Source: Crocinitomicaceae bacterium (GTDB taxonomy: Bacteria; Bacteroidota; Bacteroidia; Flavobacteriales_D; Sanyastnellaceae). From it: a DNA stretch of 38,472 nt. Shown piece after piece: positions 7,146-31,710 of this stretch. Made by a program: the position numbers and the translations under genes. Within the stretch, counting starts at the first letter, position 1. Each line of letters starts with the position of its first letter. The DNA is taken from positions 1-38,472 of the forward strand of contig JBEIFO010000001.1 of assembly GCA_040382375.1 (NCBI GenBank). The letters run 5' to 3'. The notes beneath the pieces were generated by a model. That model made no database searches and was not told where the DNA came from. It was given only the letters and a program-made list of their open reading frames with translations.

Positions 7146-7195
7146 AAATAGAATAGTAAGGTTATTCAAAAGTATCGAAAAAATTGATTGCTGGA

Positions 7196-7230
7196 AATAA
7201 AAAAGTCCCACTGCAAGGTGGGATTTTTTG
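7196..7230 (-). terminator. rho-independent (bidirectional-looking) terminator ending the 16-gene operon
   Basis: The stem tcccac (7206-7211) / gtggga (7218-7223) has a 6-nt loop and is flanked by an A-run on the left and a T-run on the right, so a U-tract follows the stem on either strand. It is the first such structure after the last operon gene (stop at 7358). Coordinates are +/- 1-2 nt. Confidence 0.55.
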
Positions 7231-8918: not shown

Positions 8919-9470
8919 CTAATTCCCATACTTTGTGAACTTGAGACTGACGTCAGTTGGTTTGTCTCCGTAGATTAAAATCGATTCGTCGTTGGCGAGA
9001 GAATAGACATACAATTTGTATTTCTTCTCCGAGTAATTTACCGTTGATTCGTCGCTATAGTCAACAAACAAACTTTCGTATTGACTTGAAGTCAAATCTA
9101 TTCTTAAGACAAGATGGTTATCTAAATCTGTAAAGTTGGTCCAAAATATATGTTTGTATTGATCGGGTGTGTAATCTCGGGTATATGCTGTTGTGAAGTT
9201 GTCTAGCAGCTTCACGCGAATCTTAGATTTGCATGCATTATTTCTTGACTCAAACTTATAGTCGAAGGGTATATCGAAAAAAAATCGGTCTTTAGATATA
9301 CTGCTCGTGGCCAAGTATACATTGCTTTCGATGAATTGAAAGTAATTTGCTTTGCTTGTAAAGGAAGTGTCTAGGTAATCTTGAATCTTGTCGTTTAACA
9401 AAGGAAAACACTCCTGAGAGAAACAAGGTTGGCATGCCAGAATAAAAATAATAATGACAGAGACACGCAT
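8919..9470 (-). CDS. small secreted protein, unknown function
   Basis: 183-aa ORF with signal peptide MRVSVIIIFILACQPCFSQ. It starts 1 nt after the upstream gene's stop. Confidence 0.5.
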   Translation of the reverse strand: MRVSVIIIFILACQPCFSQECFPLLNDKIQDYLDTSFTSKANYFQFIESNVYLATSSISKDRFFFDIPFDYKFESRNNACKSKIRVKLLDNFTTAYTRDYTPDQYKHIFWTNFTDLDNHLVLRIDLTSSQYESLFVDYSDESTVNYSEKKYKLYVYSLANDESILIYGDKPTDVSLKFTKYGN

Positions 9471-9471
9471 T

Positions 9472-10194
9472 TTACAATGATATTTTATCTATCCTAAAGT
9501 TTTTGAACCTCACACCTTTTGTAACGGAGGTAATTTCCAAAAGAACAGTATAATTAAAGCCTTTTTTGAGTTTTTGTTTGGGGTAATTAAATTCTCCACC
9601 ATCTTCTAAAGATAAAGTACCGGAACGAATAATTTCTTTTCCGGCAGGCCAATCCAAAACTACTAATTGTGCTTGGCAATAATTAAGAATAGTTGGGTCG
9701 TACATAAACTTATTTCCGCCACGTACGAGCAGCACATCCAATTCTCGTTCACATCCTTGTGCTTCACTTAGCCCATATTGAAGAGGGCAAGAGTCTTCTT
9801 TGTCTTTTATTCCGTCTTTATCTGTATCGTCGCTTTCCGGATTTGTTTTGTTAGCTAATTCTTGTTCAAGCGTAATACCGTCTTTATCAAAATCACAAGT
9901 ACCGCAATTTTTGTTTGGAACGCACGGCTCGTTGTCGTTCACATCTTGCGTTGAAGCATCCTTAACAAATCCCGCGAAAAAACCATCGCCATCTGCATCG
10001 TTGTTATTCTGAACCACGCTATCTTTCGGACAACCGTTGTTCAGCGAAGAGGCTACCGTTGGACATCTGTCTACCTCATCGGCAAATCCGTCTGAGTCAG
10101 TATCCACAACCTTGGTTTCCGGCGTATAGAGTATATACCCCAAAGCCACCAGCGCCACAATGAAAATAGTGAGTATCGGTATTCGCTTTTTCAT
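9472..10194 (-). CDS. thrombospondin type-3 (TSP3) Ca-binding repeat protein, N-terminally anchored or secreted
   Basis: 240-aa ORF with an N-terminal hydrophobic helix IPILTIFIVALVALGYILY. There are four Asp-rich loops of the DxDxDGxxDxxDxCP type: DTDSDGFADEVDRCP, NNDADGDGFF, CDFDKDGITLEQE, DDTDKDGIKDKEDSCP. A ~90-aa beta-rich tail follows. Confidence 0.65.
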   Translation of the reverse strand: MKKRIPILTIFIVALVALGYILYTPETKVVDTDSDGFADEVDRCPTVASSLNNGCPKDSVVQNNNDADGDGFFAGFVKDASTQDVNDNEPCVPNKNCGTCDFDKDGITLEQELANKTNPESDDTDKDGIKDKEDSCPLQYGLSEAQGCERELDVLLVRGGNKFMYDPTILNYCQAQLVVLDWPAGKEIIRSGTLSLEDGGEFNYPKQKLKKGFNYTVLLEITSVTKGVRFKNFRIDKISL

Positions 10195-10198
10195 TGAG

Positions 10199-11173
10199 TT
10201 ATTTCAATGGAATTCCTAGCTTACAGTTTGGATCTGTTAGAGCATCCTCGAATTTTTTTACAAGGAAAAGATAAGGTTTAATTGCGAGTAGGTATTTTTC
10301 TGAAGATTTGTATACTTCATCTCCTCTAAATTTTGGATTAGTATACTTAACATTTTCTTGCATCACCTCTTCAAATTTCGAACATAATTCAAGGAAACGG
10401 TCATAATCAGCTTTAACTTCAATTGCAGATTTTTGAAGACCCAGAAATGTTGAATTCGCTATTAAACTAGTTAGTGATAATTGCGCCTTTGTAAATTCAT
10501 CTTTTGATATATTCTCGTTTTTCAGCAATGTGATGGCCGATTGAAGCGCTGAGGCTTGCTTTTTAAATTCATCAAGTTTTGTTTTTGTCTCCTCTTTCTT
10601 CAGCTGGCTCTTCATCAAGTCAATTGTTGAGTTGTCAGGACTTTGACAATGTAAAATGTAGTCGTTCACTATTTGGTCATAGGCCTTGTCCTTGACTTCA
10701 GCTTCAGCACTGAGTTGGTTTTTTTGGTTTTTTTCTAAATTAGTTTGTTTCTTCTCATCCGAGAGAAGATTCTCGGCTTGCTTTTTTTCTTCAATCAATT
10801 TTTTATTAGAGGTTTCTAACTTCTTATATGCCACTGCAGAAGATACTAAAGAATCTTCTAGGACTTTTAACTTCGTGTATTGTTTGTTTATCTCCATAGG
10901 TATTCCATCTACCCCCGTTTTTAAATTCTTAACCTCTTCTTGAAGTAGTTTGAATTGTTCGGCTAAATCACTTAAATCTTTTTTTGTTAGCGGTCGCTTT
11001 GGGTCTTCCGGATTGCAAGGTTTTTCTTTCGATGAATTTTCTTTATCGTCTTTTCCTTTTTCATCTTTGATTTCAGTCTTATCTTTTTTAACCTTTTCCT
11101 CAACATCGACTTGAGAAAAGGCTGTCAATCCGAGAAATAGTAATGTTATGGAAGTGAGTAATTTTGCAGTCAT
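10199..11173 (-). CDS. secreted coiled-coil protein, unknown function
   Basis: 324-aa ORF with signal peptide MTAKLLTSITLLFLGLTAFSQ, followed by long K/E/L/Q-rich heptad-like sequence. Confidence 0.55.
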   Translation of the reverse strand: MTAKLLTSITLLFLGLTAFSQVDVEEKVKKDKTEIKDEKGKDDKENSSKEKPCNPEDPKRPLTKKDLSDLAEQFKLLQEEVKNLKTGVDGIPMEINKQYTKLKVLEDSLVSSAVAYKKLETSNKKLIEEKKQAENLLSDEKKQTNLEKNQKNQLSAEAEVKDKAYDQIVNDYILHCQSPDNSTIDLMKSQLKKEETKTKLDEFKKQASALQSAITLLKNENISKDEFTKAQLSLTSLIANSTFLGLQKSAIEVKADYDRFLELCSKFEEVMQENVKYTNPKFRGDEVYKSSEKYLLAIKPYLFLVKKFEDALTDPNCKLGIPLK

Positions 11174-11179
11174 CTTTTT

Positions 11180-11911
11180 TTATTTTTTATTTAGTTCTTC
11201 TATGTTTAGTCGATAAATTGCATAGTAATATTTATACTTCATCACGACATTTTCATCAATTTTGTACCAGTTTTTACTTGCTTGGGCTTGATTAAATTCT
11301 TGGTCTACAAAATAAAAAAAGGAAGAGATTTCGGAATAAATTTTACTTTCTAGACTGCTTATTGCTGTGCAGTTGCGAAATGGTTCGCCGTTTATTGCTG
11401 TAGATATTCCGTTCGCTAGTCCATCTGCCTGTGCTTGATCATAGGGCCCAGCTAGAAAGGCATTCAGTCTCGATTCGAAGTTTAAAACAGAGTTGTAGCG
11501 CGTGTGCGTATTCAATAAATCTTGAAGTTCATTGGATTTGTTTGAACAGTTATTGGCAGTTCGAATAACCTTGTCCAAGCCTGAAGCATTGCAGCTGTTG
11601 TTTAACCAGTTCTTCAGTGAGAGTACCAATGCGTTTTGCTTGGCATATTCAAGGTTACTGAGTAAACTTGATTTCTTTCCTGAATTAATTTTGCCAACCG
11701 ATTCGAACATGTTAATGTCACCTTCAATAGTTAACACGCTGTCTTCATTGAAAGGTAATTTTCCTAAGGAATCTATGCGCTCATCGATATTCATTTTTTT
11801 TCTTGGAGGTTCTCCGCCACTACCAAAAGGACCTTTGGTAATAAGTAAACTCAATCCGAACAAGAGTCCGGCTATGGCAATGACAATAATGATGAGACTG
11901 TGTTTTTTCAT
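11180..11911 (-). CDS. N-terminally membrane-anchored protein, unknown function
   Basis: 243-aa ORF with a single TM LIIIVIAIAGLLFGLSLLI after MKKHS, followed by a soluble domain with four Cys. Confidence 0.5.
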   Translation of the reverse strand: MKKHSLIIIVIAIAGLLFGLSLLITKGPFGSGGEPPRKKMNIDERIDSLGKLPFNEDSVLTIEGDINMFESVGKINSGKKSSLLSNLEYAKQNALVLSLKNWLNNSCNASGLDKVIRTANNCSNKSNELQDLLNTHTRYNSVLNFESRLNAFLAGPYDQAQADGLANGISTAINGEPFRNCTAISSLESKIYSEISSFFYFVDQEFNQAQASKNWYKIDENVVMKYKYYYAIYRLNIEELNKK

Positions 11912-11942
11912 GGTATATTATTGTTAAAACTGTAAAAGAATT

Positions 11943-12686
11943 TTAAGGCATTTGATTCATTAGTCTTTTTTGCTGGCTTGAGGTGAATTGGAACTCTGCC
12001 ACTTTGTTTATTATACAATCGGGGGTACATTTTCCTGCTCTGACATCCATCTCAATTTCTTTGTATATAGCTGCCTTTTCTGATGGAGTAAGCGTTTTTT
12101 TAGTCGGTGGTGTCACCTTAGGAATTTCCGTCCGTGGTGTTTTCGGTGGCTTAGGATCCTTAGGTGGACTCGTTACCGGTGGAGTTGTTGGAGGTGTTAC
12201 CGGGGGAGTTGGTGGTAGAGGGTTCGTTTGAGCGAGATCACCCTTGTTTTTCGCCTCCTCTGTTCTAAACTTCTCATCCCATTTAGCTAAAATTAGGGGA
12301 ATGTCACTACTAGGCGTTGCAGGTTTCCATTTGGCATCAGCGGTTCCTTCTTTCATTTCCCAAGCATTGTTTAAAAAGCGATAGAATCGTTTATTCGCAT
12401 TGTATTTACTTCCGTCTTCGGTGAGTAATGATTTTTCCACGCGATAAGTCTTGCCATCATATTCAAAATCTGTGTACTGTTCGTCATTGGCTGGAGGGAC
12501 AACTTTATCACCACCTTCTGATCCAGCTGGAGGTTTAGGAGTTACTGGAGGTAGCGGATTCTCCACAACATCAGGAAACCAGGTATTCCAATTCATTCCA
12601 GCAAAAAAGCAACCTGAGGCCAAGGCCAACGTCAAGATAGAGCTAAAGGTTATTTTAGCAACATTGTGATTATTTAGCTTTTTCAT
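11943..12686 (-). CDS. bitopic membrane protein; paralogue of the C-terminal module of the 12762-14834 protein
   Basis: 247-aa ORF. It aligns by eye over its whole length with residues ~455-698 of the upstream 698-aa ORF: the TM ending in F(F/A)AGMNWNTWF, a Pro-rich spacer, YDGKTYRVEKSLLTEDGSK...WEMK...DIPLILAKWDEKF, a second Pro/Lys spacer, and the C-terminal KCTPDCIINKVAEFQF..QQKRLMN. Confidence 0.6.
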   Translation of the reverse strand: MKKLNNHNVAKITFSSILTLALASGCFFAGMNWNTWFPDVVENPLPPVTPKPPAGSEGGDKVVPPANDEQYTDFEYDGKTYRVEKSLLTEDGSKYNANKRFYRFLNNAWEMKEGTADAKWKPATPSSDIPLILAKWDEKFRTEEAKNKGDLAQTNPLPPTPPVTPPTTPPVTSPPKDPKPPKTPRTEIPKVTPPTKKTLTPSEKAAIYKEIEMDVRAGKCTPDCIINKVAEFQFTSSQQKRLMNQMP

Positions 12687-12761
12687 ATGCCATTTTTTTT
12701 AGTTCGCATATAAATCAACTCTGAACTCGTTGTTTTTTTATGAATGATTTTATTCATTTGT

Positions 12762-14834
12762 CTAATCAAGCTCATTCATTAGTTGTTTTTGTTCGTTTGC
12801 GCCGAATTTAAACTCTTTCACTTTACTTATTATACAATCAGCATCACACTTGCCATTTTTAACCTCCTTTTTGATTTCTTCGAATTTCGCAGCTTTTTGA
12901 GCTGGAGTTAGAGGTTTTGTCTTTGCCTTTTCTGCAGCTGCTCTTTCCGCAGCTGCTTTCTCTGCAGCTACTTTCTCTGCAGCTGCTTTTTCCGCAGCTT
13001 TTGCTTTATCCGCTGCACTTTCATCTGTTTTTCTTTTTTCTGTTTCTGTGAAGTCCTTATTATCAGCTTCACCTTCGGTTTTTTTTACTTCTTGTTTAAA
13101 TCTTTTATTCCATTCAACTAATATAAAGGGTATATCAGTTTTTCCAGGAGCACCCCAACTTTCATCGCTATCCGATGTTTTCATCTCCCACTTTCCTCCG
13201 ATATAGCGATAGGTGCTGCCATTTCCATAACCAGCGGTTTGTCCTCCAAATTTACTACCTGTATCAGTTAATAGAGATTTTTCCACACGATAAGTCGTGC
13301 CATTGTATGGGAATTCAATATGATTATTTGCAATTTCAGCAGGTTTAGGTGTCACTGGTCCTGGAGGTTCAGGGTCTTTTGGTGGTTGCGGATCCTTTGG
13401 CCCCTCAACTTCATGTGAAAACCAATTATCCCAATTCATAGCCGCGAAAAAACCACCACCTGTCAATGCAATGGCCACAAATGCCATTACTGCTATTTTA
13501 GCTATCGGCTTTTCGTTCTTTACCCATTTTTTACTGACAAGAAATTGATATTTCTCCTGCATTTTTTTATCAAAAGGAGAAGCGCCATTTAGTCTTTTAG
13601 GCCAGCCCTCAATAGTCTTCAGCCATTCATTTTGTTTAACAAGAATTGTTGATCTGTCTCTGGTTGTAACTTCCTTGTAAATATGTACAATGTCATCCTG
13701 AATATCAGAATTCGTCTGCATTCGGCGCCAGTTCTTAAGCTTTATCTTCGAATCTGAAGGTAATCTTGATTCGAGCTGATTTTTTTGAAGTCTAGTCTCA
13801 ACAGCGTTAATTGGTATGCCGTATTCGTGTTTTTCGGCTTTATTAATATCATTAACTAGCTCATCAATTTCCTTTTTCTCGTTTGTGAGTATTTGATTAT
13901 CTAAAAGATTTTGCCAATTAAGCAGAGCTTTTTGTTCATCACCAGTTAGTTGATTGGTAATTTTTGGGAATTGAGCCAACAGATTTTCACACGGAGAATA
14001 ATCAGTTGAATTGTTCTGAATGAATGAACTAATTAGGTTTTTTAGTTGAAAGACTGCGCTTGAATAGTGCATTTCAGATTTCCAATTCTCGAACAAAGTG
14101 CGCTCATTTTCATTGAGTGCCGATGAAACTGTGTTATATAATTCATTCGCCTTCTGAAAATTCGATTTTGCACTCAGAAGGGCTCTGAATTCCACAACAC
14201 TTTGCGATCTTTTTTGATTTTCTTGATTTATTTGCCCCAGGTTCAATTGCTGAGTAGATAAATTCAAATGAATTGGTAATTCCGGATTGCTTCCGGTCTG
14301 CATGAAATAGACTTCATCACCAATATAATCATTTAAGTTAAGTTCAGACTCATTCTGAAAGTAACACACGGTATTGTTACCAATAGAGCGGGCATTTCCG
14401 GACGATAAGGTTAAATTGGAAATGACACTTCGAACTTGATCATTGGTGAACATGTTCGTGCGAATCGTATAGTCAGCATTGCGGGTTTTGTATAGTTTTT
14501 TTAGGTTTTGTAATCCGTCTTTAATACTCCCGCCAATGATATTCGACTTTGGACAAACAATGCTATAAACAAGGTATGTTTCTCTTCCTGCAATGTCTTG
14601 GTGCGATTTGTCTACCAAAGAATAGATTTGGTATTGGTGATCTTGCATGAGAAAATAAAAATCTCGTTGACCAGATCGAAAAGCAACGTCTTTTGCAGAA
14701 GTGAAATAATGACAAATATTGTCGTAGTCCTGAATTTCAGACGCCTCTGTTAGCCTGTTTCTCTCGGGGAAAAGAGCTGTGCCCTCTGTAAAACCATAAC
14801 GTACCCCCCAAATATAAACTTGAATCGTATTCAT
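12762..14834 (-). CDS. large bitopic membrane protein: ~450-aa cytoplasmic domain + TM + Pro-rich spacer + periplasmic module; GTPase partner candidate
   Basis: The ATG at 14834 lies 4 nt after the GTPase stop; the alternative GTG at 14858 would overlap it by 20 nt. The TM is IAVMAFVAIALTGGGFFAAMNW, the Pro-rich spacer is PKDPQPPKDPEPPGPVTPKP, there is an (AEKAA)n helix, and the tail is KCDADCIISKVKEFKF. The N-terminal domain has no family I can name. Confidence 0.6.
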   Translation of the reverse strand: MNTIQVYIWGVRYGFTEGTALFPERNRLTEASEIQDYDNICHYFTSAKDVAFRSGQRDFYFLMQDHQYQIYSLVDKSHQDIAGRETYLVYSIVCPKSNIIGGSIKDGLQNLKKLYKTRNADYTIRTNMFTNDQVRSVISNLTLSSGNARSIGNNTVCYFQNESELNLNDYIGDEVYFMQTGSNPELPIHLNLSTQQLNLGQINQENQKRSQSVVEFRALLSAKSNFQKANELYNTVSSALNENERTLFENWKSEMHYSSAVFQLKNLISSFIQNNSTDYSPCENLLAQFPKITNQLTGDEQKALLNWQNLLDNQILTNEKKEIDELVNDINKAEKHEYGIPINAVETRLQKNQLESRLPSDSKIKLKNWRRMQTNSDIQDDIVHIYKEVTTRDRSTILVKQNEWLKTIEGWPKRLNGASPFDKKMQEKYQFLVSKKWVKNEKPIAKIAVMAFVAIALTGGGFFAAMNWDNWFSHEVEGPKDPQPPKDPEPPGPVTPKPAEIANNHIEFPYNGTTYRVEKSLLTDTGSKFGGQTAGYGNGSTYRYIGGKWEMKTSDSDESWGAPGKTDIPFILVEWNKRFKQEVKKTEGEADNKDFTETEKRKTDESAADKAKAAEKAAAEKVAAEKAAAERAAAEKAKTKPLTPAQKAAKFEEIKKEVKNGKCDADCIISKVKEFKFGANEQKQLMNELD
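12930..13004 (-). repeat. in-frame 15-nt tandem repeat (about 5 units) encoding (AEKAA)n
   Basis: ttcYgcagctgcttt-like units repeat head to tail. The protein reads AAEKAAAEKVAAEKAAAERAAAEKAK. Confidence 0.7.
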
Positions 14835-14838
14835 GATG

Positions 14839-16191
14839 TTAGTTTGAGAATAATCCACGCACTCCTGTTTTATAGCGAGCGGTATGACTAATTACTTTTT
14901 CTGTGATTGATTGTGGGAAGGTATTTAACGATTGGTTTGTTCTCGGGTTGTAATCTACCAACAATTGTCCGAACGTACACTCTCCAATGGAATAGGCAAT
15001 AACATCCCACTCAAATTCGTATTTGCTAGCTAAATCGAGCATTCGGTTTTTGAATGAGCCGTAATATTCCGAAACATATTTTCCTGCACGGTCGTCATAT
15101 TCAGACATCGGGCAATTAAACATATCAGCCTTTGTAACCACTAAATAAATGCTGTCCGTGTTATCCAGAATACCCATGGTTTCCAAATTATTTAGCACCA
15201 TGATCAAATTCAAACTTTGTTCAAAGGCATCGGCACCGTCATTATCTACCGAGTAATCAAGTACAAAGAACAAGGCCTTTGAGTTGTTGTTTTGAAGGTA
15301 GTTCTTATGCTCATTGAAATTACTTTGTCCTTCTGTAGCTACACGCTCGAACTTCTCACCCGCCATGTCTAGGATATTAATGGGCAAGTCGTATTTAATT
15401 CGAGTAGTTTTTCCGAGGAATCCCTTTTTGTCTTCTTCAATAGAAAGTATTACTTCAATGTAGTCAATGAAATTGTTTGGGTTCCCAATGGGAAGAATTC
15501 CTTTTGAAAATCCACCGCCTAGAATTCTGAAGTATTGTGAGCTTCGCGGGTTGGCAACTTCCGGGTTACAAATTCCAATGCGCATCCAGTGGCTAAGCAT
15601 ACTTGCAATAAGGCAAGATTTACCTGCTGACGGCATTCCTAAGAAATAAAAATCTGTTCGGTCTTTTTGCAACGGAGGTAAACTAGAAAAGTCAACAGCA
15701 GGCATTTGCTGCATGGTGTACTTTCGAATGCGCTCCACCATGGATTGATCTAAATAGCATCTATTTATTAAATCGTTTTCCGATATATCGTCGTTGAGCA
15801 GTGCCTCTTGTATTTGGCTAACAGTTATCTTTCTTCTGACAATTCGATCAATAAGTTGCGCATTGTATGATCCAATAGGAGGTGCCGAAGGTGATGGATT
15901 AGAGTAATATATTGGTTCCGGTTCAGGTTGTGCTTCTGGACCGAAGATTTGATCAATACGCGATTGATGCATACCGGCGCCTACCAGCGTCTCTTTGGAA
16001 ATGTTTTCTTGATTAACTCTTTTTTTAGTAAGTTCTAAATCAATGTTATTGAGCTTTTCAACATTTAATCCGTATTGAATAAGACAGTTCAATTCGAAAT
16101 TATGAATGCGAATAAAGTTGTCTATTTCCGTTTGTCCGTATGTATTAATAGAGTTTAATACAGGCAGTTGGTTTGGCGTAGCATTGCACAT
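14839..16191 (-). CDS. Ras/Rab-like (TRAFAC-class) small GTPase domain protein with a novel N-terminal region
   Basis: G1 is FLGMPSAGKS (15616-15639), G3 is ILDMAGE (15355-15369) and G4 is LVVTKAD (15124-15135), in canonical order. I prefer the ATG at 16191, 26 nt after the upstream stop. The track ORF extends to a TTG at 16389 but would then overlap the upstream gene by 172 nt. Confidence 0.65.
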   Translation of the reverse strand: MCNATPNQLPVLNSINTYGQTEIDNFIRIHNFELNCLIQYGLNVEKLNNIDLELTKKRVNQENISKETLVGAGMHQSRIDQIFGPEAQPEPEPIYYSNPSPSAPPIGSYNAQLIDRIVRRKITVSQIQEALLNDDISENDLINRCYLDQSMVERIRKYTMQQMPAVDFSSLPPLQKDRTDFYFLGMPSAGKSCLIASMLSHWMRIGICNPEVANPRSSQYFRILGGGFSKGILPIGNPNNFIDYIEVILSIEEDKKGFLGKTTRIKYDLPINILDMAGEKFERVATEGQSNFNEHKNYLQNNNSKALFFVLDYSVDNDGADAFEQSLNLIMVLNNLETMGILDNTDSIYLVVTKADMFNCPMSEYDDRAGKYVSEYYGSFKNRMLDLASKYEFEWDVIAYSIGECTFGQLLVDYNPRTNQSLNTFPQSITEKVISHTARYKTGVRGLFSN

Positions 16192-16217
16192 ATGGGTAAT
16201 GGTTGTATAGGTAAAGG

Positions 16218-17156
16218 TTATGAGCCAAACTGTCTTCCTTTCGTAAGGAAGTATGGCAATAGAATGAACATTTGAAACAAGAGAATCACAATAATACTTG
16301 AAGCTCCAAGGTGCTTCTTCGCTAAATCTATCGGGTGATTTATAAGCGTATTTTGCATGAATGACTTCTGAGGTACTGAAAGCTGGCAAGTGTTCACCGT
16401 TCTCGATTTAAGTTCGTTGTTGAGTGCTTCGTTATCTGCTGTAATCTTTAAGTTAAGTTGTTCCAATGTATTGGTTATTTCCATTCTGTTCCAATTGGAA
16501 ATATTCTGCTTTGCTTTTTCGAAGTATGCAACTTTATCATCACCTATAAGTTCTATAGGTTTCAGTGCAAACTCTTCGTTCAAATAGGCAGTTCTTTTCT
16601 GAAGTGCTTGTGCTAGGTTAGGTTGGCTCTTTAAATTATTTATACAGCCCTCGTCGCAATTGAAAGGCGCGGCGTTTAAAGTAGCAGTCACACTTGCGTT
16701 TGCACCTCCCTTGAGCGCATTGATGTTTGTAATAAACTGAGACTCCAGAGTAGAGGTGAAAGTTTGATATTGGGTTTCGTAATCCGTGTATATTTCTTCC
16801 AATCCTTTTACTTTATTCAATCCAATTTTTTTAATTTCTTCTTTTTCAAAAAATTCAACATTCACAAAGTGAAGGACAAAAACAGATAGGGTCAAGTTAA
16901 TGAAGGCGTATAATCCAAACATGGCATAGAAGCTTGTTGGGTAGCCCTTCCTTTTTCTGTTTTCTTTTTCCCAACAAAATTTAATAATTAAATAATAGAT
17001 GGCAACAACGAAAATGACGCTAATGAGCCCTGCGATTAATATGTTACCGCTGAACATATAAAGTCCACCAATAAAACTAAAAAGTAAAGTAAGAATAAGT
17101 CCAAAGGCTTGAACGAGTTGAATGTAGAGCTTAAAGTTATTTTGTCTAGCTTTCAT
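16218..17156 (-). CDS. polytopic membrane protein with a central coiled-coil/soluble loop, unknown function
   Basis: 312-aa ORF. N-terminal helices are FGLILTLLFSFIGGLYMF, ILIAGLISVIFVVAIYYLII and FYAMFGLYAFINLTLSVFVLHFV. A ~170-aa polar region follows, then a C-terminal helix SSIIVILLFQMFILLPYFL. Confidence 0.55.
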   Translation of the reverse strand: MKARQNNFKLYIQLVQAFGLILTLLFSFIGGLYMFSGNILIAGLISVIFVVAIYYLIIKFCWEKENRKRKGYPTSFYAMFGLYAFINLTLSVFVLHFVNVEFFEKEEIKKIGLNKVKGLEEIYTDYETQYQTFTSTLESQFITNINALKGGANASVTATLNAAPFNCDEGCINNLKSQPNLAQALQKRTAYLNEEFALKPIELIGDDKVAYFEKAKQNISNWNRMEITNTLEQLNLKITADNEALNNELKSRTVNTCQLSVPQKSFMQNTLINHPIDLAKKHLGASSIIVILLFQMFILLPYFLTKGRQFGS

Positions 17157-17196
17157 GAGGTAAGGAGTTGTTTAAAAATGTCATTTTAGGTAGCCA

Positions 17197-17204
17197 CAAA
17201 TATA
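17197..17204 (-). promoter_or_regulatory. candidate Bacteroidota -7 box (TATATTTG) in the 62-nt gap upstream of the 16218-17156 gene
   Basis: The plus strand reads caaatata, so the minus strand reads TATATTTG, which matches TAnnTTTG. It lies ~41 nt upstream of the ATG at 17156. No convincing -33 TTTG sits at proper spacing, and the motif is expected by chance many times in AT-rich DNA. Confidence 0.25.
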
Positions 17205-17218
17205 ACCATTTTTCAATT

Positions 17219-19408
17219 TTAATTTCTGATTTTATATAGCGCCTGATTAATTTGAATAAGTGGTGGACAATTGGCTTCAGACATAGGTTTTGCTGTTTCG
17301 TGAAGAATCTTTAAAACTTCAGCATTGGTTATGTTTGGCTTAACAGATTTAAGCAATGCAATGCACCCCGTTACAATAGGTGCTGCCATACTAGTGCCGT
17401 CCATAAATTCATAATTATTTCCTGGTACTGTGCTGAAAATCTTCTCTCCAGGCGCTGAAATGTAATTTACCGAAGTGCTATTCGCCTCAGAGAAATTGCT
17501 AAAAGAGGCTTTTCTTAGATTTTCATTGACCGCAACAACTTTTAATACTTGTTCTGAGCGCTGCATAGGATCTAGTCCAATTAATAGGTTCTCGTTGCCA
17601 CCCGCCAAAACAATAAGTGTATTGTTCTTTTCAGCCATATTGAAAAGCTCTTTCCAAAAGGCTTCTTCATCTTTTTCATCATTGGCTTTTATCTGTTTTT
17701 GGTCGTCTAGACTTAAGCGCTTTGCAGCTTCACCGTAGTATTTCCCGAGTGACATGTTAATGACATCAGCTTTTTTGTTTAAAGCGTACAGCACCGCATC
17801 TACAATATCGGTCGTTGTAAAAAACTCGCCGTCTCCGCCAATTTGAACAGGCATAAAGCTGCAATTTGGAGCAATTCCCGCGCCTCCAATTCCATTGTTT
17901 GCGTTAGCAAGAGCAAGACCGGCCACGTGTGTTCCGTGAATAATCTCTCCACCCCCGGTTACCGATGTATTTCTTAGGGGAATATTGTATGGGAACAAAA
18001 TTCTTTTTCCCGAGAATTCTGAATGAGTTAAATCGAAGCCGTCATCTATAACCGCAATGCAAACGCTTGTGTCTCCCATGGTTACATCCCAAGCCTCAGG
18101 TGCATGAATAGCACGAAGAAACCAGTTTTTATCTGCCATGAATGTGCTAGGGTCATTTGTAGTTTTTCCGCTGTGAAATACACTTTCATCCCACATAAGT
18201 AAGTTGTAGGAACTGAGTTTTGTCCGGATCTCATTTTTTATCGTACTCGAAAGTTCTTCAGGATAACTCAGTTGAATACGCTGCGTTTGATCATCGAAAT
18301 AAACTATTTCATAGCTGTCGTCTGGAAATGATTGTTTCAACGAGATGGCCATTCTTTTGAACTCTTCCTTTTTATCAACCATTGCAATGTTCAGGAGCCC
18401 ACCAACGATTATTCTGCCTGATTCATCGTCTTCTCTGAATTGAGCAGTGTCAATGGGAATAGATCTGTGCCTTGGTTCATCGGGAGTAATCTCTTCAAAA
18501 TGTTCATTGACCTCTTCTTCATTTAATTCACTCACATTTATGCCATCTAGGCCGTTACATGTTTTAAATAGCAGGAGAGCAATCAGTAGTGCCAGAATTA
18601 GAAACAACCACCAAAATCGTTTAAAGAATCTTTCGAACCCGTCGAGCATACGGTAGAACAGCGGCTTTTCTTTTACTGGCAATACCTTCGGCGCAACCGG
18701 CGCAGGTGCTGCTTCTTCAATAGTTTCAACTGGCTCTTCGGGTACAGTGCTTTCTTCTTCTGCTGAGGCTATCGTGTATTCAGGTGTTGTTTCAGCTTCA
18801 GCCGAAGGCGTTGGTTCGTTTTCAACGTTCGCAGTGGATATTTCATTTTGAACTTCCGCCGGCTCAGTTGAATAGACTTCAGGCGTTTCGTGTTCAATCG
18901 CTGTGTTTTCATCGATTGCGCTCTCAACGGCACTTGCCGCAATGATGGAGGACTTGTACTCGTCGAAAGGAACGGTATAGTCAAGTTGCTTGTTTGTTTT
19001 AATTCCCCAAACGACTACAATTTGAGTTCCGTTAGAGAATAGGAAAAGGTGATTTGGATTGAAAGCACTTTGTAAGATGCTTGCCCAAAGTTGTTTGTCG
19101 AAATCTTCAGATTGCGCCAAATACAAACATTTGGTTTCTATTTCATGTTTTCGAGCATTGTAAATCTGAAGGAGTTTAGCTTGATTTTCTTTTGGAAGGT
19201 CTTCGATTTTTTGGAATTCACCATCAAGAGAAGTGAACCAATCCAATGAAGTTCCCTTCTTTTCTGGTTTTGCTAAAAGATGGTGATACTCCGGTGGGAA
19301 ATTTACTTTTATGAATTGTTGAATCTGATTGAATTGCTCATACATATAATTGATATGATTTGAGACCAATTCGAATTCATTTATCGACGAAGTGAAGAAC
19401 TTTTTCAT
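17219..19408 (-). CDS. membrane-anchored subtilisin-like serine protease (peptidase S8) with an N-terminal cytoplasmic domain
   Basis: 729-aa ORF. The S8 triad sits in canonical contexts: AVIDDGFD (Asp455, ~18044-18046), HGTHVAGLA (His491, ~17936-17938), GTSMAAPIVTG (Ser673, ~17390-17392), plus the oxyanion Asn in LAGGNEN. Upstream of the S8 domain are a ~150-aa N-domain, an acidic/Pro-rich linker, a TM (RFWWLFLILALLIALLLF) and a propeptide-like region. Confidence 0.8.
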   Translation of the reverse strand: MKKFFTSSINEFELVSNHINYMYEQFNQIQQFIKVNFPPEYHHLLAKPEKKGTSLDWFTSLDGEFQKIEDLPKENQAKLLQIYNARKHEIETKCLYLAQSEDFDKQLWASILQSAFNPNHLFLFSNGTQIVVVWGIKTNKQLDYTVPFDEYKSSIIAASAVESAIDENTAIEHETPEVYSTEPAEVQNEISTANVENEPTPSAEAETTPEYTIASAEEESTVPEEPVETIEEAAPAPVAPKVLPVKEKPLFYRMLDGFERFFKRFWWLFLILALLIALLLFKTCNGLDGINVSELNEEEVNEHFEEITPDEPRHRSIPIDTAQFREDDESGRIIVGGLLNIAMVDKKEEFKRMAISLKQSFPDDSYEIVYFDDQTQRIQLSYPEELSSTIKNEIRTKLSSYNLLMWDESVFHSGKTTNDPSTFMADKNWFLRAIHAPEAWDVTMGDTSVCIAVIDDGFDLTHSEFSGKRILFPYNIPLRNTSVTGGGEIIHGTHVAGLALANANNGIGGAGIAPNCSFMPVQIGGDGEFFTTTDIVDAVLYALNKKADVINMSLGKYYGEAAKRLSLDDQKQIKANDEKDEEAFWKELFNMAEKNNTLIVLAGGNENLLIGLDPMQRSEQVLKVVAVNENLRKASFSNFSEANSTSVNYISAPGEKIFSTVPGNNYEFMDGTSMAAPIVTGCIALLKSVKPNITNAEVLKILHETAKPMSEANCPPLIQINQALYKIRN

Positions 19409-19442
19409 GTTTGAAATCTTTACTGTTTGTATGTGATAATTT

Positions 19443-20198
19443 CTATTTTACGAAAGTTAGAATTTGGGTGGCTCTGTCGAATCTCAAAACGCCAATTTTT
19501 TCGGCTTTCCCACACCCTCCCAAATTTTTAATTCGATGTGGAAAGGAAATGACGTTGCCAACTTCTTCTCCGCCATCGTTTATAAATTGAAATTTATCTT
19601 TGCGCATGGTTCCCCCTTTGTAAGCTCTAATATCAAGTGACATCTTCCCGCTGTCTTTTCGAGTATACCACCACGCTTTGCAAAGTACTTCAATGACATC
19701 GTTTTCTTTGAAATGATTGACATCGATGTAAACCGATTCAACACCGGTTCCTTGGTTATCAAGACTCCAATATAACCCCTCAGCATCGCGATCTTTGCAA
19801 AAACCCAATTCATTCCCCTTCTCTGGAGAAATGATTCTGGTTCTTGTATCTAGATCCGTCCCTCCGCTTGCGTCGAATTGGTAAGTAATGATGATATAAT
19901 CGGCGGGTAGAAATATTTCATTAGAATCTAATGGAGGAGTAATTTCTTTTCTACAATTACAGCATTGATCCAAATCGCGACGAATGTTTACAATCAAAGA
20001 GTCGATGCTTTCTTTTTGTGAGCAATTGAAAACTGAATCAGCAGGCGACTTCTTTAGAATGAAAAACAAGAGCAATGAAATGAGTGCAGCCCAAACAAGG
20101 TAATTGAACCACCAGTATCGAAAGGAAAACCAGGAGTAGCTGCGAATGGATTTTCCCCACCATTTGTTTTTTATACTATGATTCTTTGTGGTTAGCAT
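19443..20198 (-). CDS. anchor-module paralogue 3: short basic N-terminus + TM + CCNC motif + unique C-terminal domain
   Basis: 251-aa ORF. The N-terminal ~90 aa (KWWGKSIRSYSWFSFRYWWFNYLVWAALISLLLFFILKK...DSLIVNIRRDLDQCCNCRKE) is nearly identical to the neighbouring 20202-20945 protein. The C-terminal ~160 aa is unrelated to it by eye. Confidence 0.6.
   Translation of the reverse strand: MLTTKNHSIKNKWWGKSIRSYSWFSFRYWWFNYLVWAALISLLLFFILKKSPADSVFNCSQKESIDSLIVNIRRDLDQCCNCRKEITPPLDSNEIFLPADYIIITYQFDASGGTDLDTRTRIISPEKGNELGFCKDRDAEGLYWSLDNQGTGVESVYIDVNHFKENDVIEVLCKAWWYTRKDSGKMSLDIRAYKGGTMRKDKFQFINDGGEEVGNVISFPHRIKNLGGCGKAEKIGVLRFDRATQILTFVK
19954..20170 (-). repeat. conserved 5' anchor-coding segment, copy A (direct repeat of 20701-20917)
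   Basis: About 217 nt align without gaps to 20701-20917, at roughly 85% identity by eye. The downstream (3') coding parts do not align. Confidence 0.7.
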
Positions 20199-20201
20199 GA
20201 A

Positions 20202-20945
20202 TTAATCGCAGGTTATTTTGCAAGATCCAAAGCTCCAAGGTCTCATGTCAGTTCTACTCCATTTGCGCACGGATTGTGGATAATTACGTTGTAATTCACC
20301 AGTGTAAGTGTCAGTATTACAGTGAGTATAATTAGGATTATCTTTTAGCAAGACATTATTAATGATCGCTGGGCCTTTGACATCAAGCACCACAGTTCCT
20401 TTGAAATTCTTCTCACTATAAATTACCAGTCGGGTATCCTTATCTATGGCAATTCCATCAAAGGATTTGTCAACAGCCTTTGGGAAGGCGGCTTCATTCG
20501 ATGGATACTCTCCGGAACCGACATATTCACTGAAATCATCGGTTACGTAAATTTTTGAAATTCCGACGGGGTCATATTCACCCCCCATGATTCCGCCGCT
20601 GAAATGTACCCGGCAGTTTTCAGATGGTCCTTTCGGACGAGTGTCTTCGACAGGTGGTGGTGTTGGTTCTTTTATCGGAGGGGGAGGTACTTCTTTGCTG
20701 CAATTACAGCACTGATCCAAATCGCGACGAATGCTTACAATCAGAGAATCGATACTCTCTTTTTGCGTGCAATTGAAAACTGATTCTGCAGGCGATTTTT
20801 TTAGAATAAAAAACAGAAGTAATGAGATGAGTATGGCCCAAACGAGGTAGTTAAACCACCAATATCGAAATGAAAACCAAGAGTTATTTCGAATGGTCTT
20901 TCCCCACCATTTTGACTTTATAATATTGTTTTTCTTTGTGGACAT
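20202..20945 (-). CDS. anchor-module paralogue 2: short basic N-terminus + TM + CCNC motif + unique C-terminal domain
   Basis: ATG at 20945; the track start at 20948 is a TTG one codon upstream. The anchor is KWWGKTIRNNSWFSFRYWWFNYLVWAILISLLLFFILKK...DQCCNCSKE, followed by a Pro-rich PPPPIKEPTPPPVEDTRP stretch and a ~140-aa beta-rich domain ending in SFGSCKITCD. Confidence 0.6.
   Translation of the reverse strand: MSTKKNNIIKSKWWGKTIRNNSWFSFRYWWFNYLVWAILISLLLFFILKKSPAESVFNCTQKESIDSLIVSIRRDLDQCCNCSKEVPPPPIKEPTPPPVEDTRPKGPSENCRVHFSGGIMGGEYDPVGISKIYVTDDFSEYVGSGEYPSNEAAFPKAVDKSFDGIAIDKDTRLVIYSEKNFKGTVVLDVKGPAIINNVLLKDNPNYTHCNTDTYTGELQRNYPQSVRKWSRTDMRPWSFGSCKITCD
20701..20917 (-). repeat. conserved 5' anchor-coding segment, copy B (direct repeat of 19954-20170)
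   Basis: See copy A. The two copies are 747 nt apart, head to tail, in adjacent genes. Confidence 0.7.
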
Positions 20946-20957
20946 CAATAAGTTAAT

Positions 20958-21659
20958 TTATTCGCAACAACGTGTGTAATTGAAATTAATGTTGAAGTTT
21001 TTTCCGGAATTCATTTGATAGGGTATGTTTTTAATTTTACAAGGGTCTGAAAGTTCTTTGCCCATTAGCAGGTAATTTCTTATTTCGATTGTACCGAGGT
21101 TGTCGTTGTGATTATTCTGGGTGTTTTTTAGTCTTATTTTATTCTTCCCGAACTTAATAATTCTTGGATCGAAATAATAAATATTCATGTTGCTAATCGG
21201 GCATATAAAATCAGATTGCTTAATTAAAATGCTATGATCATTGGTTGCTAAGAAAACGGAACCCACTTGTTGATTAGTGTTCAAGTCTAATTTGCCGATG
21301 TTCACTTCGTTTAAATACACGTCGAAATTGTCGTCTTTTGCAGCATTGGAATTGCACACTTGAAAGGCAAGTATTCGATCGGGACAATCAACTGCGATGG
21401 AATCTACTTTGTTTTTAGCGCAATTACAGCAATTTTCGAGTGCGATCTTAATCTGTTCAATAGAAGAATTAACCTCATCAACTTGCGGACAGTCAGCGCT
21501 TAGAGTGTCAGTTTTGAAGTAGAAAAACCCGAACAAGAAGAGAGCCGCTAGGAGGAGCATCCAATTGAACCACCAATAACGGAAACCGAAATAATTTCGT
21601 TCACGAATCGCGCGTACCCACCATTTTTTGAATATTCCTGACTTTCTAGTAATTGCCAT
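20958..21659 (-). CDS. anchor-module paralogue 1 (more diverged): short basic N-terminus + TM + CCNC motif + unique C-terminal domain
   Basis: 233-aa ORF. The anchor is KKWWVRAIRERNYFGFRYWWFNWMLLLAALFLFGFFYF...IKIALENCCNCAKNK. A ~150-aa beta-rich domain follows, ending in YTRCCE. Confidence 0.6.
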   Translation of the reverse strand: MAITRKSGIFKKWWVRAIRERNYFGFRYWWFNWMLLLAALFLFGFFYFKTDTLSADCPQVDEVNSSIEQIKIALENCCNCAKNKVDSIAVDCPDRILAFQVCNSNAAKDDNFDVYLNEVNIGKLDLNTNQQVGSVFLATNDHSILIKQSDFICPISNMNIYYFDPRIIKFGKNKIRLKNTQNNHNDNLGTIEIRNYLLMGKELSDPCKIKNIPYQMNSGKNFNINFNYTRCCE

Positions 21660-21682: not shown

Positions 21683-22555
21683 TTATTTCTTAACGTAAGT
21701 TGTGTCGCATCTTTCATGCACGCGATTTTGCAGGTCTAGTAACTCTTGTTTAGTTTTTTCTAAATCGTTACACATTGCACCGCAATCAGGTTTGTTGCAA
21801 GATTTGCAGAGCCAAATGATTAAAAGCGTGTAAATGATTAGCCAAAACAATCCCCAAAAGCGGTACGAAATCCATCTGAGAATTCGTTTAATTCTTTCCC
21901 AAAATCCAACGCGATGCTTTACTATAGCAGGATCGATTATTGGAACTACCGGAATGGGCTGCTCTTCTTTAATTGCACCGCTTGTCGGTTGCTCTGTGTA
22001 TTGAGTATTTTGAAAAGTCGGTTGCACCGGAGCAGGTATCACAGGTTCTTCTTGTCTAACCTCGGGCTCGCTTACGGGAACAGCTGGTTTAATTGAGGGT
22101 GGAAGAACAGGCAGTCTATTGTCATTCTGTGTTTTGAAATCCCAGCCCCATAACATTCCCCAGTCTCCGTTTTCATTACCGATAAGAATTATTTTGTCGT
22201 GCTGAAAAAGAGTGTCAAGTAAATTCCCCCATTCTTTGCTATCTATGTCTTTTTTAGCAGTAAGCGGGTATGAAATGGATTTGCACTTTTTTAGGAATTG
22301 GTCGAATTCTAATTTTAATTGCTGTGCCCTTTCTTCGGAAAGCTCATTTATTTTTGAGAACGAGCCGTTCATATTGCCATACCATGCAATTTCACCATTG
22401 GCATTGAGGACAGGCTTAAGCAACTTATCAAGTTCCTGAGGACTCAACTTACCCCTTAAGAACGAAATGATAATTTCATAGGTGTCATAGAGATAGCGAT
22501 CTCTAAATGAAATTGGGGTGTAGTTATTACTGTACGTAGAATATAATAAGTTCAT
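21683..22555 (-). CDS. bitopic membrane protein: N-domain homologous to that of the S8 protease + Pro-rich linker + TM + short Cys-rich tail
   Basis: The ATG at 22555 lies 1 nt after the upstream stop (TAAAATG); the track start at 22564 is a TTG. The N-domain aligns with residues ~40-145 of the 729-aa protease. The TM is WGLFWLIIYTLLIIWL, followed by CKSCNKPDCGAMCND...RCD. Confidence 0.6.
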   Translation of the reverse strand: MNLLYSTYSNNYTPISFRDRYLYDTYEIIISFLRGKLSPQELDKLLKPVLNANGEIAWYGNMNGSFSKINELSEERAQQLKLEFDQFLKKCKSISYPLTAKKDIDSKEWGNLLDTLFQHDKIILIGNENGDWGMLWGWDFKTQNDNRLPVLPPSIKPAVPVSEPEVRQEEPVIPAPVQPTFQNTQYTEQPTSGAIKEEQPIPVVPIIDPAIVKHRVGFWERIKRILRWISYRFWGLFWLIIYTLLIIWLCKSCNKPDCGAMCNDLEKTKQELLDLQNRVHERCDTTYVKK

Positions 22556-22556
22556 T

Positions 22557-31709: not shown

Positions 31710-31710
31710 T

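Follow-up and report, generated by a model that had tools for sequence, protein, structure and literature searches.

Can a GTPase and a single membrane-spanning protein encoded beside it pass a signal across the inner membrane on their own, or do they belong to a larger system? The question was raised by a 38,472-nucleotide (nt) stretch of a Crocinitomicaceae bacterium (assembly GCA_040382375.1, contig JBEIFO010000001.1, positions 1 to 38,472), called the window below. An initial annotation of its sequence had described a Ras-like GTPase translationally coupled to a 690-amino-acid (aa) bitopic protein, here called the partner. It had also noted a 247-aa paralogue, which repeats the transmembrane (TM) and periplasmic module of the partner. 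We found that the GTPase and the partner are a sub-module of an undescribed SrfB/SrfC envelope operon of about 20 kb that is specific to Bacteroidota. The 247-aa paralogue appears to be a strain-variable copy of the periplasmic module, which strains exchange by recombination. The minus strand carries all three genes, whose parts are located as follows:

14839..16191, minus strand: GTPase gene, 450 aa, assigned through AlphaFold2 (AF2), Foldseek and a sub-threshold match to Pfam DO-GTPase2
15616..15639, minus strand: P-loop (G1) GMPSAGKS, residues 185-192; G185, G190 and K191 invariant in 52 sequences
15355..15369, minus strand: Walker B (G3) DMAGE, residues 275-279; D275, G278 and E279 invariant
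15124..15135, minus strand: G4 motif TKAD, residues 353-356, for guanine specificity; K354 and D356 invariant
12762..14834, minus strand: partner, bitopic inner-membrane protein of 690 aa; ATG 4 nt after the GTPase stop
14250..14834, minus strand: N-terminal alpha/beta domain of the partner, residues 1-195, from family alignments; motif VYIWGVRYGF
13515..14222, minus strand: cytoplasmic helical stalk of the partner, residues 205-440; long helices in AF2, strain-variable
13419..13505, minus strand: pre-TM and TM segment of the partner, IAKIAVMAFVAIALTGGGFFAAMNWDNWF, residues 444-472, from hydropathy; common to the free-standing paralogues
12765..13403, minus strand: periplasmic cassette of the partner, with the Pro-rich linker at 13341-13403 and the beta-rich block at 13098-13313
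12765..13016, minus strand: distal parts of the same cassette, with the (AEKAA)n helix at 12921-13016 and the CxxxC three-helix tip at 12765-12911
11943..12686, minus strand: 247-aa free-standing TM segment and periplasmic cassette, from BLASTP to the partner and a DNA match to the partner tails of relatives

The mechanically listed open reading frame (ORF) of the GTPase (14839..16389, TTG start) runs too far into the upstream gene. Every full-length homologue starts with MCN, which supports the ATG at 16191 (MCNATPNQ) and a gene of 16191..14839. The partner gene (14834..12762) begins with an ATG 4 nt past the TAA of the GTPase gene, and an alternative GTG at 14858 would give a 20-nt overlap with it. 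Both readings of the junction had been proposed from the sequence, and the 4-nt one was confirmed. Eight of nine N-terminally complete close homologues of the partner start with MN[AT]IQVYIWG, the called start of P0063 being shorter; this indicates that the ATG at 14834 is real and that the protein has 690 residues. The paralogue gene spans 12686..11943.

For the genomic context, 54 distinct non-redundant GTPase loci were fetched, 17 of them from species-representative genomes and 37 from metagenomes. Retrieval used two peptide patterns and undercounts divergent members, and the synteny labels rest on BLAST to the window proteins. The initial annotation had named a lack of linkage in other genomes as the result that would speak against a pair; a partner-type ORF (start hh[WYV]Gx[RK]xG[FY]) follows the GTPase in 39 of the 47 loci whose downstream flank reaches 150 nt or more. 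Most of the eight misses are Bacteroidales or marine variants that are very distant and have another start motif. Among the rest, L006 is a start-calling miss, with the partner found separately, and L040 carries a tandem GTPase. The gap between GTPase and partner is 1-22 nt in the Flavobacteriales-type loci. This tight and universal linkage argues for a functional pair. Freshwater metatranscriptome contigs that are 95-99% alike cover the 4-TM gene upstream (see below), the GTPase gene and part of the partner N-domain. One of them spans the GTPase–partner junction (14742-14895), which is consistent with co-transcription, with the proviso that RNA libraries can contain DNA.

The pair does not stand alone. 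SrfC was found in all 24 loci with at least 9 kb upstream, SrfB wherever the flank reaches it, and an S8 protease in 30 of the 32 loci whose upstream flank measures 3.3 kb or more. A membrane protein with four hydrophobic segments (4-TM protein) lies upstream of the GTPase across the Flavobacteriales-type loci, as detected by BLAST, and L014 has an equivalent 327-aa multi-TM ORF. In the window, the operon starts with SrfB, SrfC, an SrfA-like protein, three small TM-anchored paralogues and a 729-aa S8 protein. It continues with the 4-TM protein of 312 aa, the GTPase, the partner, the 247-aa gene and five secreted or anchored proteins, namely g243, g324cc, g240 (with TSP3 repeats), g183 and g523. 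The members discussed below are:

28369-25325, minus strand: SrfB (PF07520, E=3.4e-183)
25319-22557, minus strand: SrfC (PF10139, E=4.4e-119)
22564-21683, minus strand: tail-anchored SrfA-like protein (NCBIfam SrfA_fam, 1.4e-6, sub-threshold)
17219..19408, minus strand: 729-aa protein; SrfA-N-like domain on the cytoplasmic side, followed by an acidic linker, a TM segment (residues 265-283) and a periplasmic S8 subtilase (Pfam Peptidase_S8, 1.6e-45)
16218..17156, minus strand: 312-aa membrane protein with four hydrophobic segments by hydropathy, directly upstream of the GTPase
11180-11911, minus strand: g243, signal-anchored; co-varies with the partner tail
10199-11173, minus strand: g324cc, secreted coiled-coil protein; co-varies with the partner tail

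Locus L012 has a permuted order (8964-21081), in which the 4-TM protein, the GTPase and the partner precede SrfB, SrfC and the SrfA-like protein. Its partner tail carries a LysM domain, and no S8 gene was seen within 9 kb upstream. That the three genes stay together in this arrangement suggests a sub-module. The operon is rare and patchy, with 18 loci among 185,579 species genomes. Its carriers are freshwater Flavobacteriales, Cryomorphaceae and Crocinitomicaceae, and, at 24-30% identity, gut Bacteroidales such as Alloprevotella and Muribaculaceae. One complete Bacteroidota-type operon (L005, CAZKRL010000015.1), with a GTPase 53% identical to that of the window, is labelled "uncultured Comamonadaceae"; the label more probably reflects a binning error than an occurrence in Proteobacteria.

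These neighbourhoods bear on the simplest model, in which the GTPase and a TonB-like transducer are self-contained and the 247-aa protein is a constant second periplasmic arm. The tight GTPase–partner junction fits this model. So do the architecture of TM, Pro-rich or helical spacers and C-terminal domain, which is real, and the paralogue, with its own ATG, basic N-terminus and intact TM. We nevertheless consider the model very unlikely. The pairing proposed in the initial annotation stood, and the self-containment did not, since SrfC accompanies the pair in 24 of 24 loci and the S8 protease in 30 of 32. The model was already weakened by the paralogue, which is missing in the nearest relatives and varies from zero to four copies. 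Moreover, no TonB_C hit was obtained, and the operon proteins scanned included no member of the ExbB/ExbD or TolQ/TolR families.

What kind of GTPase is it? The structure was modelled with AF2 from a 52-sequence alignment and searched against the PDB with Foldseek. The model (mean predicted local distance difference test score, pLDDT, 83.2; predicted TM-score, pTM, 0.71) has a helical N-terminal region (residues 1-160) and a G domain at roughly residues 176-440, in agreement with the C-terminal ~270 aa proposed earlier. Foldseek returned only GTPases. Atlastin-1 matched at 7e-5, next to EF-Tu, YcjX, MglA, RABL3, the GPN-loop protein Npa3, GIMAP2 and Toc33; the probability was 1.0 for atlastin, EF-Tu, MglA, Rab27 and RABL3. 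The P-loop fold, whose absence had been named as a possible refutation, is thus present in the model. The G1, G3 and G4 motifs (GMPSAGKS, DMAGE and TKAD) occur in the order read from the sequence, and their core residues are invariant in the 52 sequences. The full invariant set comprises G185xxxxGK191[ST], D275, G278 and E279, K354-x-D356 and Y400-S-I-G403. Within DMAGE, M276 and A277 are nearly invariant in the family. The window protein has T353-K-A-D as G4 and YSIG at the G5 position. According to the model, the protein has a TRAFAC P-loop GTPase fold with a Glu in the Walker B motif, and GTP binding and hydrolysis are predicted.

The term Ras-like held for the P-loop GTPase fold and failed for the family, as the Pfam scan gave no Ras hit and an invariant Glu follows DxxG. 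Unlike the Ras superfamily, the protein has DMAGE in place of DxxGQ, TKAD in place of NKxD and YSIG in place of SAK, and no Thr is invariant between G1 and G3 (the switch-I region) in the 52-sequence alignment. The scan returned only DO-GTPase2 and MMR_HSR1, both sub-threshold; for DO-GTPase2, the window protein scored 20.7 bits, under the gathering cut-off of 27. Across the family the relation is clearer, with DO-GTPase2 matched by 33 of the 52 members at E<=0.01 (best 3.1e-7) and DO-GTPase1 by four (best 1.7e-6). The hallmark of DO-GTPases is a conserved Glu in Walker B, and about 60% of them have N-terminal zinc ribbons (PMC7159879). A CxxC...CxxC zinc-ribbon-like insert is present in P0008, P0016, P0022, P0035, P0039, P0041 and P0046, at the very position that a disordered Pro-rich linker takes up in the window protein (about residues 85-107 of the N-terminal region, nt 15877-15939). 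In the same region, Cys2 and Cys36 are nearly invariant. From these features we conclude that the GTPase is either distantly sister to the DO-GTPases or a divergent subfamily of them. Its family is a small one of 55 clusters among 5.8 billion proteins. A paralogous relation to the P-loop domain of SrfC was considered and rejected, as the alignment was limited to the P-loop.

The kinship brings in the DO-GTPase/GAP1 systems (Kaur, Burroughs, Iyer, Aravind, eLife 2020; PF19975, PF19993). The pair could be a very divergent conflict system of the GAP1-N2 type, with the partner as the GAP1 equivalent and SrfB in place of the HSP70-like component. Both have a TRAFAC GTPase with the Walker B Glu, and the best Pfam matches here are to DO-GTPase2 and DO-GTPase1; zinc ribbons occur in part of the DO-GTPases, and zinc-ribbon-like inserts in some homologues here. 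The partner gene is large and lies directly downstream of the GTPase, as GAP1 does, and encodes a TM segment followed by periplasmic domains. The setting is membrane-proximal with variable extracytoplasmic domains, and GAP1-N2 systems include membrane-anchored GAP1 proteins with extracellular domains (PMC7159879). Peptidase genes occur in some DO-GTPase systems, where peptidases are implicated in processing (PMC7159879), and DO-GTPases often come as two paralogous genes, an arrangement seen here in L040. Against this, no GAP1-N, -M or -C domain was detected in the partner at E<=5 or in the 26 members of its family at E<=0.01. The GTPase of the window is single-copy and lies below the curated cut-offs, and no FNIII or GASH family was found among the operon proteins scanned. 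The pair always sits inside an SrfB/SrfC operon, a context absent from PMC7159879, which makes no mention of Srf proteins, and PADLOC gave no match. We therefore regard a GAP1-N2 system as unlikely. Of the kinship with GTPase-centred conflict systems suggested by the initial annotation, the GTPase side survives, with DO-GTPase as the nearest family, and for a GAP1-type partner no homology was detectable.

As a separate observation, the second GTPase paralogue of L040 (11462-11803) is 46% identical over residues 1-84. It starts 60 nt past the first, at the usual partner position, where the contig ends. This is the only double-GTPase arrangement seen among the loci.

The partner was examined for a known fold or family. 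Its hydropathy profile has one hydrophobic segment (residues 447-465), preceded by a cluster of basic residues and followed by acidic ones, and this charge distribution predicts an N-in/C-out topology. All the elements described earlier were located: the TM segment, the Pro-rich linker GPKDPQPPKDPEPPGPVTPKP (residues 478-498), the beta block of ~90 aa (beta-rich at residues 508-579), the (AEKAA)n segment (residues 607-638) and the C-terminal motif, which lies in the CxxxC tip (residues 642-690). The (AEKAA)n segment is encoded by a 15-nt tandem repeat at 12924-12999. At this repeat, contigs break off, leave loose ends or have short alternatives in several runs, the source-like X1 among them, and these assembly features suggest heterogeneity of the repeat number or assembly ambiguity. 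In relatives of the partner, the modules after the TM differ and include LysM, Big_2 and TSP3-like repeats, which supports a periplasmic, wall-proximal location.

Family-wide conservation is limited to the first ~190 residues. In the family alignments of this N-domain (motif hhIWGxRxGF), G10, G14 and Y115 are invariant, and R84, L108 and F129 nearly so. In the alignment of the TM segment, K446, I447, L457, G460 and W468 are invariant. No Pfam model matched the partner at E<=5, GAP1, Roadblock and TonB included. Pfam, NCBIfam and PADLOC scans of the partner, the paralogue and the neighbours returned only low-complexity artefacts (valine-tRNA ligase tail, Rpf), and a profile of 21 diverse N-domains found nothing among PDB sequences. 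When residues 1-445 were compared exhaustively by phmmer with 1.84 billion representative proteins, 26 matches emerged. The complete ones are 600-780 aa long, and all align from their own N-terminus, which places them in the same family as the partner. Word-indexed homologue searches with the full-length protein or residues 1-450 each gave 11 close relatives. On this evidence, the partner appears to belong to a tiny orphan family without detectable relatives. The comparison with GAP1, Roadblock/longin and unrelated families called for by the initial annotation thus produced no match for the N-domain and no contrary family.

The AF2 model of the partner rests on a shallow alignment of 13 sequences. 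It is confident only for the stalk (residues 205-440, long helices, pLDDT 80-90) and the C-terminal three-helix tip. Foldseek with this model gave nothing significant (best E 0.3), TagF (E=1.2) and LOV domains being among the insignificant matches. The N-domain has the predicted secondary-structure order beta-alpha-beta4-alpha2, which, in a low-confidence model, is compatible with a longin-like or PAS-like sandwich. Bacterial GTPases encoded beside a dedicated partner are known from the MglA/MglB, SRbeta/SRX and YcjX/YcjF pairs; two of these GTPases, MglA and YcjX, rank with the best structural matches to the G domain. Unlike Roadblock/longin proteins, which are small and soluble, the partner is a 690-aa bitopic protein, and it has no sequence match or significant structural match to them.

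A relation between the partner N-domain and the SrfA-N-like domains was also tried and rejected, as hhalign aligned only a 7-residue hhWG motif with a probability below 2%. Separately, a strand of the type hhhWG[x][RK] starts the partner (14790-14819) and ends the SrfA-N-like domains (GMLWGWDFK and VVVWGIKTNK), at residues ~129-139 of the S8 protein and ~133-139 of the SrfA-like protein. It may be a shared docking strand or a coincidence.

The resemblance to TonB and TolA lies in the architecture. It comprises a single N-in TM, a Pro-rich rod as in TonB, an Ala/Glu/Lys-rich helix as in TolA domain II, and a small C-terminal domain placed to reach the wall or the outer membrane. The statement that there is no sequence homology to TonB proved correct, as the partner gave no TonB_C (PF03544) or TolA hit and the paralogue no PF03544; none of the 17 operon ORFs scanned belongs to the ExbB, ExbD, TolQ or TolR families. 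In further contrast to TonB and TolA, 445 residues of cytoplasmic region precede the TM of the partner, the low-complexity spacers are freely interchangeable, and the source of energy or signal would be a GTPase instead of the proton-motive force. By analogy, the pair might work like a DO-GTPase/GAP1 couple with a membrane-anchored partner and span the periplasm in the manner of TonB or TolA.

We then turned to the paralogue. BLASTP aligned the 247-aa protein with partner residues 444-689 (32% identity, E=5e-40), a similarity well above what chance would give. The match spans the TM, the beta block and the C-terminal tip, and the second spacer of the paralogue is Pro-rich, so the repetition of the partner module was confirmed as first described. 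The copy in the window has all blocks. The nearest relatives available for comparison are L022 and L024, with GTPases 90-93% identical to that of the window. Amino acid identity to L022 is 98% for the S8 protein, 99% for the 4-TM protein and 93% for the GTPase; it is 63% for the partner, 73% for g243 and 36% for g324cc, the most divergent gene, and returns to 94, 91 and 92% for g240, g183 and g523, respectively. Within the partner it is 57% at residues 201-300 and 35% at residues 301-390, with a synonymous divergence (dS) above 2. The DNA ceases to be collinear with L022 within the partner gene, near 13929. The pre-TM and TM segment lies in an island (13654-13390) that is 88% identical in DNA, between diverged flanks, and the partner tail of the window (13390-12762) and g324cc have no DNA-level match in L022 or L024. 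The stalk and tail of the partner, g243 and g324cc form a recombining island, and the flanks on both sides are near-identical.

Neither L022 nor L024 has a gene between the partner and g243. The paralogue gene matches their partner tails instead, with 83.5% DNA identity to L024 over 12614-12258 and 74% to L022 over 12614-12402. These matches indicate that the allele fused to the partner in the sister strains is a separate gene here, and that the partner of the window carries a different tail. One free-standing copy was found in each of L025 (258 aa), L027 (179 aa), L001 and L006, a similar ORF in L032, and four copies in L026 (104, 202, 222 and 208 aa). With no copy in L022 and L024 and one or four elsewhere, the proposal of a constant, GTPase-independent second arm had to be abandoned. 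The suggested co-occurrence of all three genes accordingly holds for the GTPase and the partner, which are kept together, and fails for the variable paralogue.

The free-standing copies could instead be non-functional debris of cassette replacement, like the orphan C-terminal (CT) modules of CdiA and Rhs proteins, and serve at most as a recombination reservoir. The 247-aa gene does carry an allele displaced from the partner, and some copies are incomplete: the beta domain is missing from L026_104 and L026_208, the tip from L026_202 and a proper TM from L001. Debris is nonetheless an improbable account of the copy in the window, whose complete ORF opens with an ATG and encodes a basic N-terminus, an intact TM and every block. 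In L025, the copy keeps 60% identity along its entire length and shows no frameshift, implying purifying selection. Between the two copies of the window, DNA identity is 70-76% and long identical repeats are absent, so there is no sign of active switching. The parallel with the CdiA-CT and Rhs-CT cassettes lies in an N-terminal part that stays constant while the C-terminal cassette varies, in a conserved segment at the allele junction, which may be a recombination anchor, and in displaced or extra cassettes in a variable-length array directly downstream. In contrast to those systems, every cassette here brings a start codon and a TM of its own, none has a recognisable toxin or immunity domain, and the cassettes are periplasmic tethers instead of secreted toxin tips.

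The mode of variation was deduced from the alleles. Among close alleles, the second spacer is swapped between (AEKAA)n, (NNNGGNA)n, (KKEEP)n and Pro/Thr-rich forms, and P0057 is a mosaic that combines the exact Pro-rich linker of the window with another type of beta block. Along the operon, dS relative to the relatives is 0.05 (4-TM), 0.15 (S8), 0.84 (GTPase), ~2.5 (SrfC) and above 2 (partner stalk), and the ratio of nonsynonymous to synonymous divergence (dN/dS) is below 1 throughout. This range of dS with dN/dS below 1 points to old alleles reshuffled by recombination, not to fast local substitution; the variation would accordingly be one of allele replacement. Positive selection on point mutations was rejected, since dN/dS nowhere reaches 1 and dS is at saturation in the variable stretches. 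Active intragenomic cassette switching was not supported either, given the identity and repeat content of the window copies. Other lake metagenomes, at a likeness of at least 90%, cover the GTPase and the conserved downstream genes, with a depth of about zero at 10420-11555 and a low depth at 13260-14679, so that g324cc and the partner, its stalk above all, are left uncovered.

In addition, comparison of 7358-28369 with L022 and L024 gave dS values that differ up to ~50-fold between adjacent genes, and the whole operon, beyond the partner region, appears to be a recombination mosaic. A second strain-specific gene was seen at the operon end. It encodes a 395-aa multi-TM protein with a lipoprotein-like signal (6024-7211, between g523 and a nitroreductase gene) and has no counterpart in L022, where 176 nt separate the flanking genes.

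How does the operon relate to known Srf loci? By its sequences, it can be classed as an SrfB/SrfC system with a non-canonical SrfA. It shares full-length SrfB and SrfC with the SrfABC systems of Salmonella, Xenorhabdus and Haemophilus (PF07520, PF10139, NF040486), as well as an SrfA-N-like domain on a bitopic membrane protein and the combination of cytoplasmic NTPases with a TM-anchored protein that has a periplasmic part. Full SrfA consists of an N-domain, a TM and, at the C-terminus, a lipocalin-like domain, and has been modelled as a bitopic platform for SrfB and SrfC (bioRxiv 10.64898/2026.09.18.752743). The SrfA-like protein of the window differs in being short and tail-anchored, with no lipocalin domain. 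It scored 28 bits against NF040486 (cut-off 150) over profile positions 31-190 and ends ~37 aa past the TM. Further differences are the order B-C-A in place of A-B-C, a second SrfA-N copy fused to a periplasmic subtilase, and about twelve extra genes, the GTPase module included, which are not reported for the proteobacterial loci. Within the literature searched with Srf and DO-GTPase terms, SrfABC is described only in Proteobacteria, and no description of the Bacteroidota cluster was found.

Two further observations concern the neighbours of the module. The cytoplasmic N-domain of the S8 protein (18809-19408) is a paralogue of that of the SrfA-like protein (21683-22564), with S16, Y21, P48, W109 and W136-G137 among the residues invariant in both, so the operon has two SrfA-N anchors, one of them with a periplasmic subtilase. 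The small TM-anchored proteins g251 (19443-20198) and g248 (20202-20948) share an 89-aa N-terminus that is 83% identical (short tail, TM and Cys-rich segment), and their C-terminal domains (~160 aa) are unrelated; g233 (20958-21659) is a more distant member. They form a second family in the operon with a constant anchor and a variable periplasmic head.

SrfABC has been reported as a tripartite toxin with a proposed exit through vesicles (PMC6950479; bioRxiv 10.64898/2026.09.18.752743), which raises the possibility of an envelope assembly or export apparatus for a surface fibre, vesicles or a toxin. The GTPase–partner pair would then regulate assembly, and the variability would stem from selection by phages or predators on exposed structural parts, not from a role in sensing or defence. 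Such an apparatus would suit the many secreted or anchored proteins downstream (g243, g324cc, g240, g183 and g523) and the divergence of the secreted coiled-coil protein g324cc, which exceeds that of any other gene. No secretin, outer-membrane barrel, ABC or type IX secretion system (T9SS) family was found among the operon proteins scanned, and the distribution is rare and patchy (the 18 loci given above). Moreover, the toxin reports concern Proteobacteria, where the mechanism was not demonstrated. We hold this explanation to be of low probability.

The architecture and mechanism that we favour, with some reserve, as probable are the following. The GTPase, the partner and the 4-TM protein would form an inner-membrane switch sub-module of the SrfB/SrfC operon. 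The cytoplasmic DO-type GTPase probably docks at the membrane on the conserved ~190-aa N-domain of the partner, and may dimerise like its structural neighbours atlastin, GIMAP and Toc. The stalk and the single TM of the partner would couple the nucleotide switch to a periplasm-spanning tether, made in order of the Pro-rich rod, the small beta domain, a low-complexity spacer and the three-helix CxxxC tip. This tether is a polymorphic cassette whose alleles pass between strains by recombination, with the conserved pre-TM/TM island at the allele boundary as a possible recombination anchor. Extra genes for anchor and tether accumulate downstream in 0 to 4 copies, the 247-aa gene being one of them, and the conserved TM segment (GGGFF..MNWxxWF) could allow these free-standing copies to enter the same assembly. 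The tip would most likely make contact with the cell wall, with g243 and g324cc as co-varying secreted proteins, or with both. The GTP/GDP state of the cytoplasm would in this way be coupled to a variable periplasmic interface, with a probable role in conflict or sensing.

Of all this, the data show the fold, the linkage of the genes, the signals of topology, the polymorphism, the recombination mosaic and transcription. Several points weigh against this proposal. Physical binding of the GTPase to the partner, the direction of signalling and the biological role are all inferred. The AF2 pLDDT of the partner N-domain is 40-65, and no fold can be assigned to it. The DO-GTPase kinship lies under the Pfam gathering cut-off, and GAP1 homology is undetectable. 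All relatives are metagenome-assembled genomes or metagenome contigs, and dS is saturated in the variable segments, which makes the dN/dS values there unreliable. The GTPase, the partner and the paralogue match no defence-system model in PADLOC-DB v2; SrfB, SrfC and the 4-TM protein gave no match in it either, and the S8 protein gave a generic subtilase match. Nor did the flanking genes examined include any of a mobile or defence-island kind, which leaves a conflict role circumstantial. In its favour, the patchy distribution, the three NTPases, the protease and the polymorphic extracytoplasmic parts fit the pattern of NTP-dependent conflict systems (PMC7159879). Taken specifically, a role in conflict or defence is a tentative suggestion, which we rate as somewhat doubtful.

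Elsewhere in the window, 33119-38080 on the strand opposite to the operon encodes a 1653-aa T9SS cargo with PKD-like and CHU_C Ig-like repeats and a Por_Secre_tail, preceded by three unannotated genes (29348-33111). A 103-aa ORF at 3877-4188 matches only the first ~90 of 191 positions of the DSBA profile and may be a truncated DsbA-like gene.

For the Srf families, these results offer a concrete context. SrfB and SrfC are widespread families named as virulence factors, whose function has been a puzzle since 2000, and they now have concrete partners to test. Their constant association with a GTPase, a periplasmic protease and bitopic adaptors points to an inner-membrane signalling or effector complex, not to a secreted toxin. 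The pair extends the DO-GTPase theme to a new partner family without detectable relatives. The tether cassette, with allele swaps at the TM anchor, 0-4 spare copies and old alleles maintained in lake populations, provides a signature of selection on a periplasmic protein that is unusual and visible at the level of populations, and its polymorphism can be tracked directly in existing freshwater time-series metagenomes. As a speculative and unlikely extension, the DO-type GTPase might, together with SrfB and SrfC, gate or energise recombining TonB/TolA-like tethers and a periplasmic protease, and thereby counter or sense envelope attack by a phage or a competitor. If true, Bacteroidota would possess an NTP-powered trans-envelope system that has so far gone undescribed. 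It would be analogous in function to the Ton and Tol systems, with GTP as the driving force in place of the proton-motive force, and would provide a mechanistic context for the long-orphan SrfB and SrfC families.

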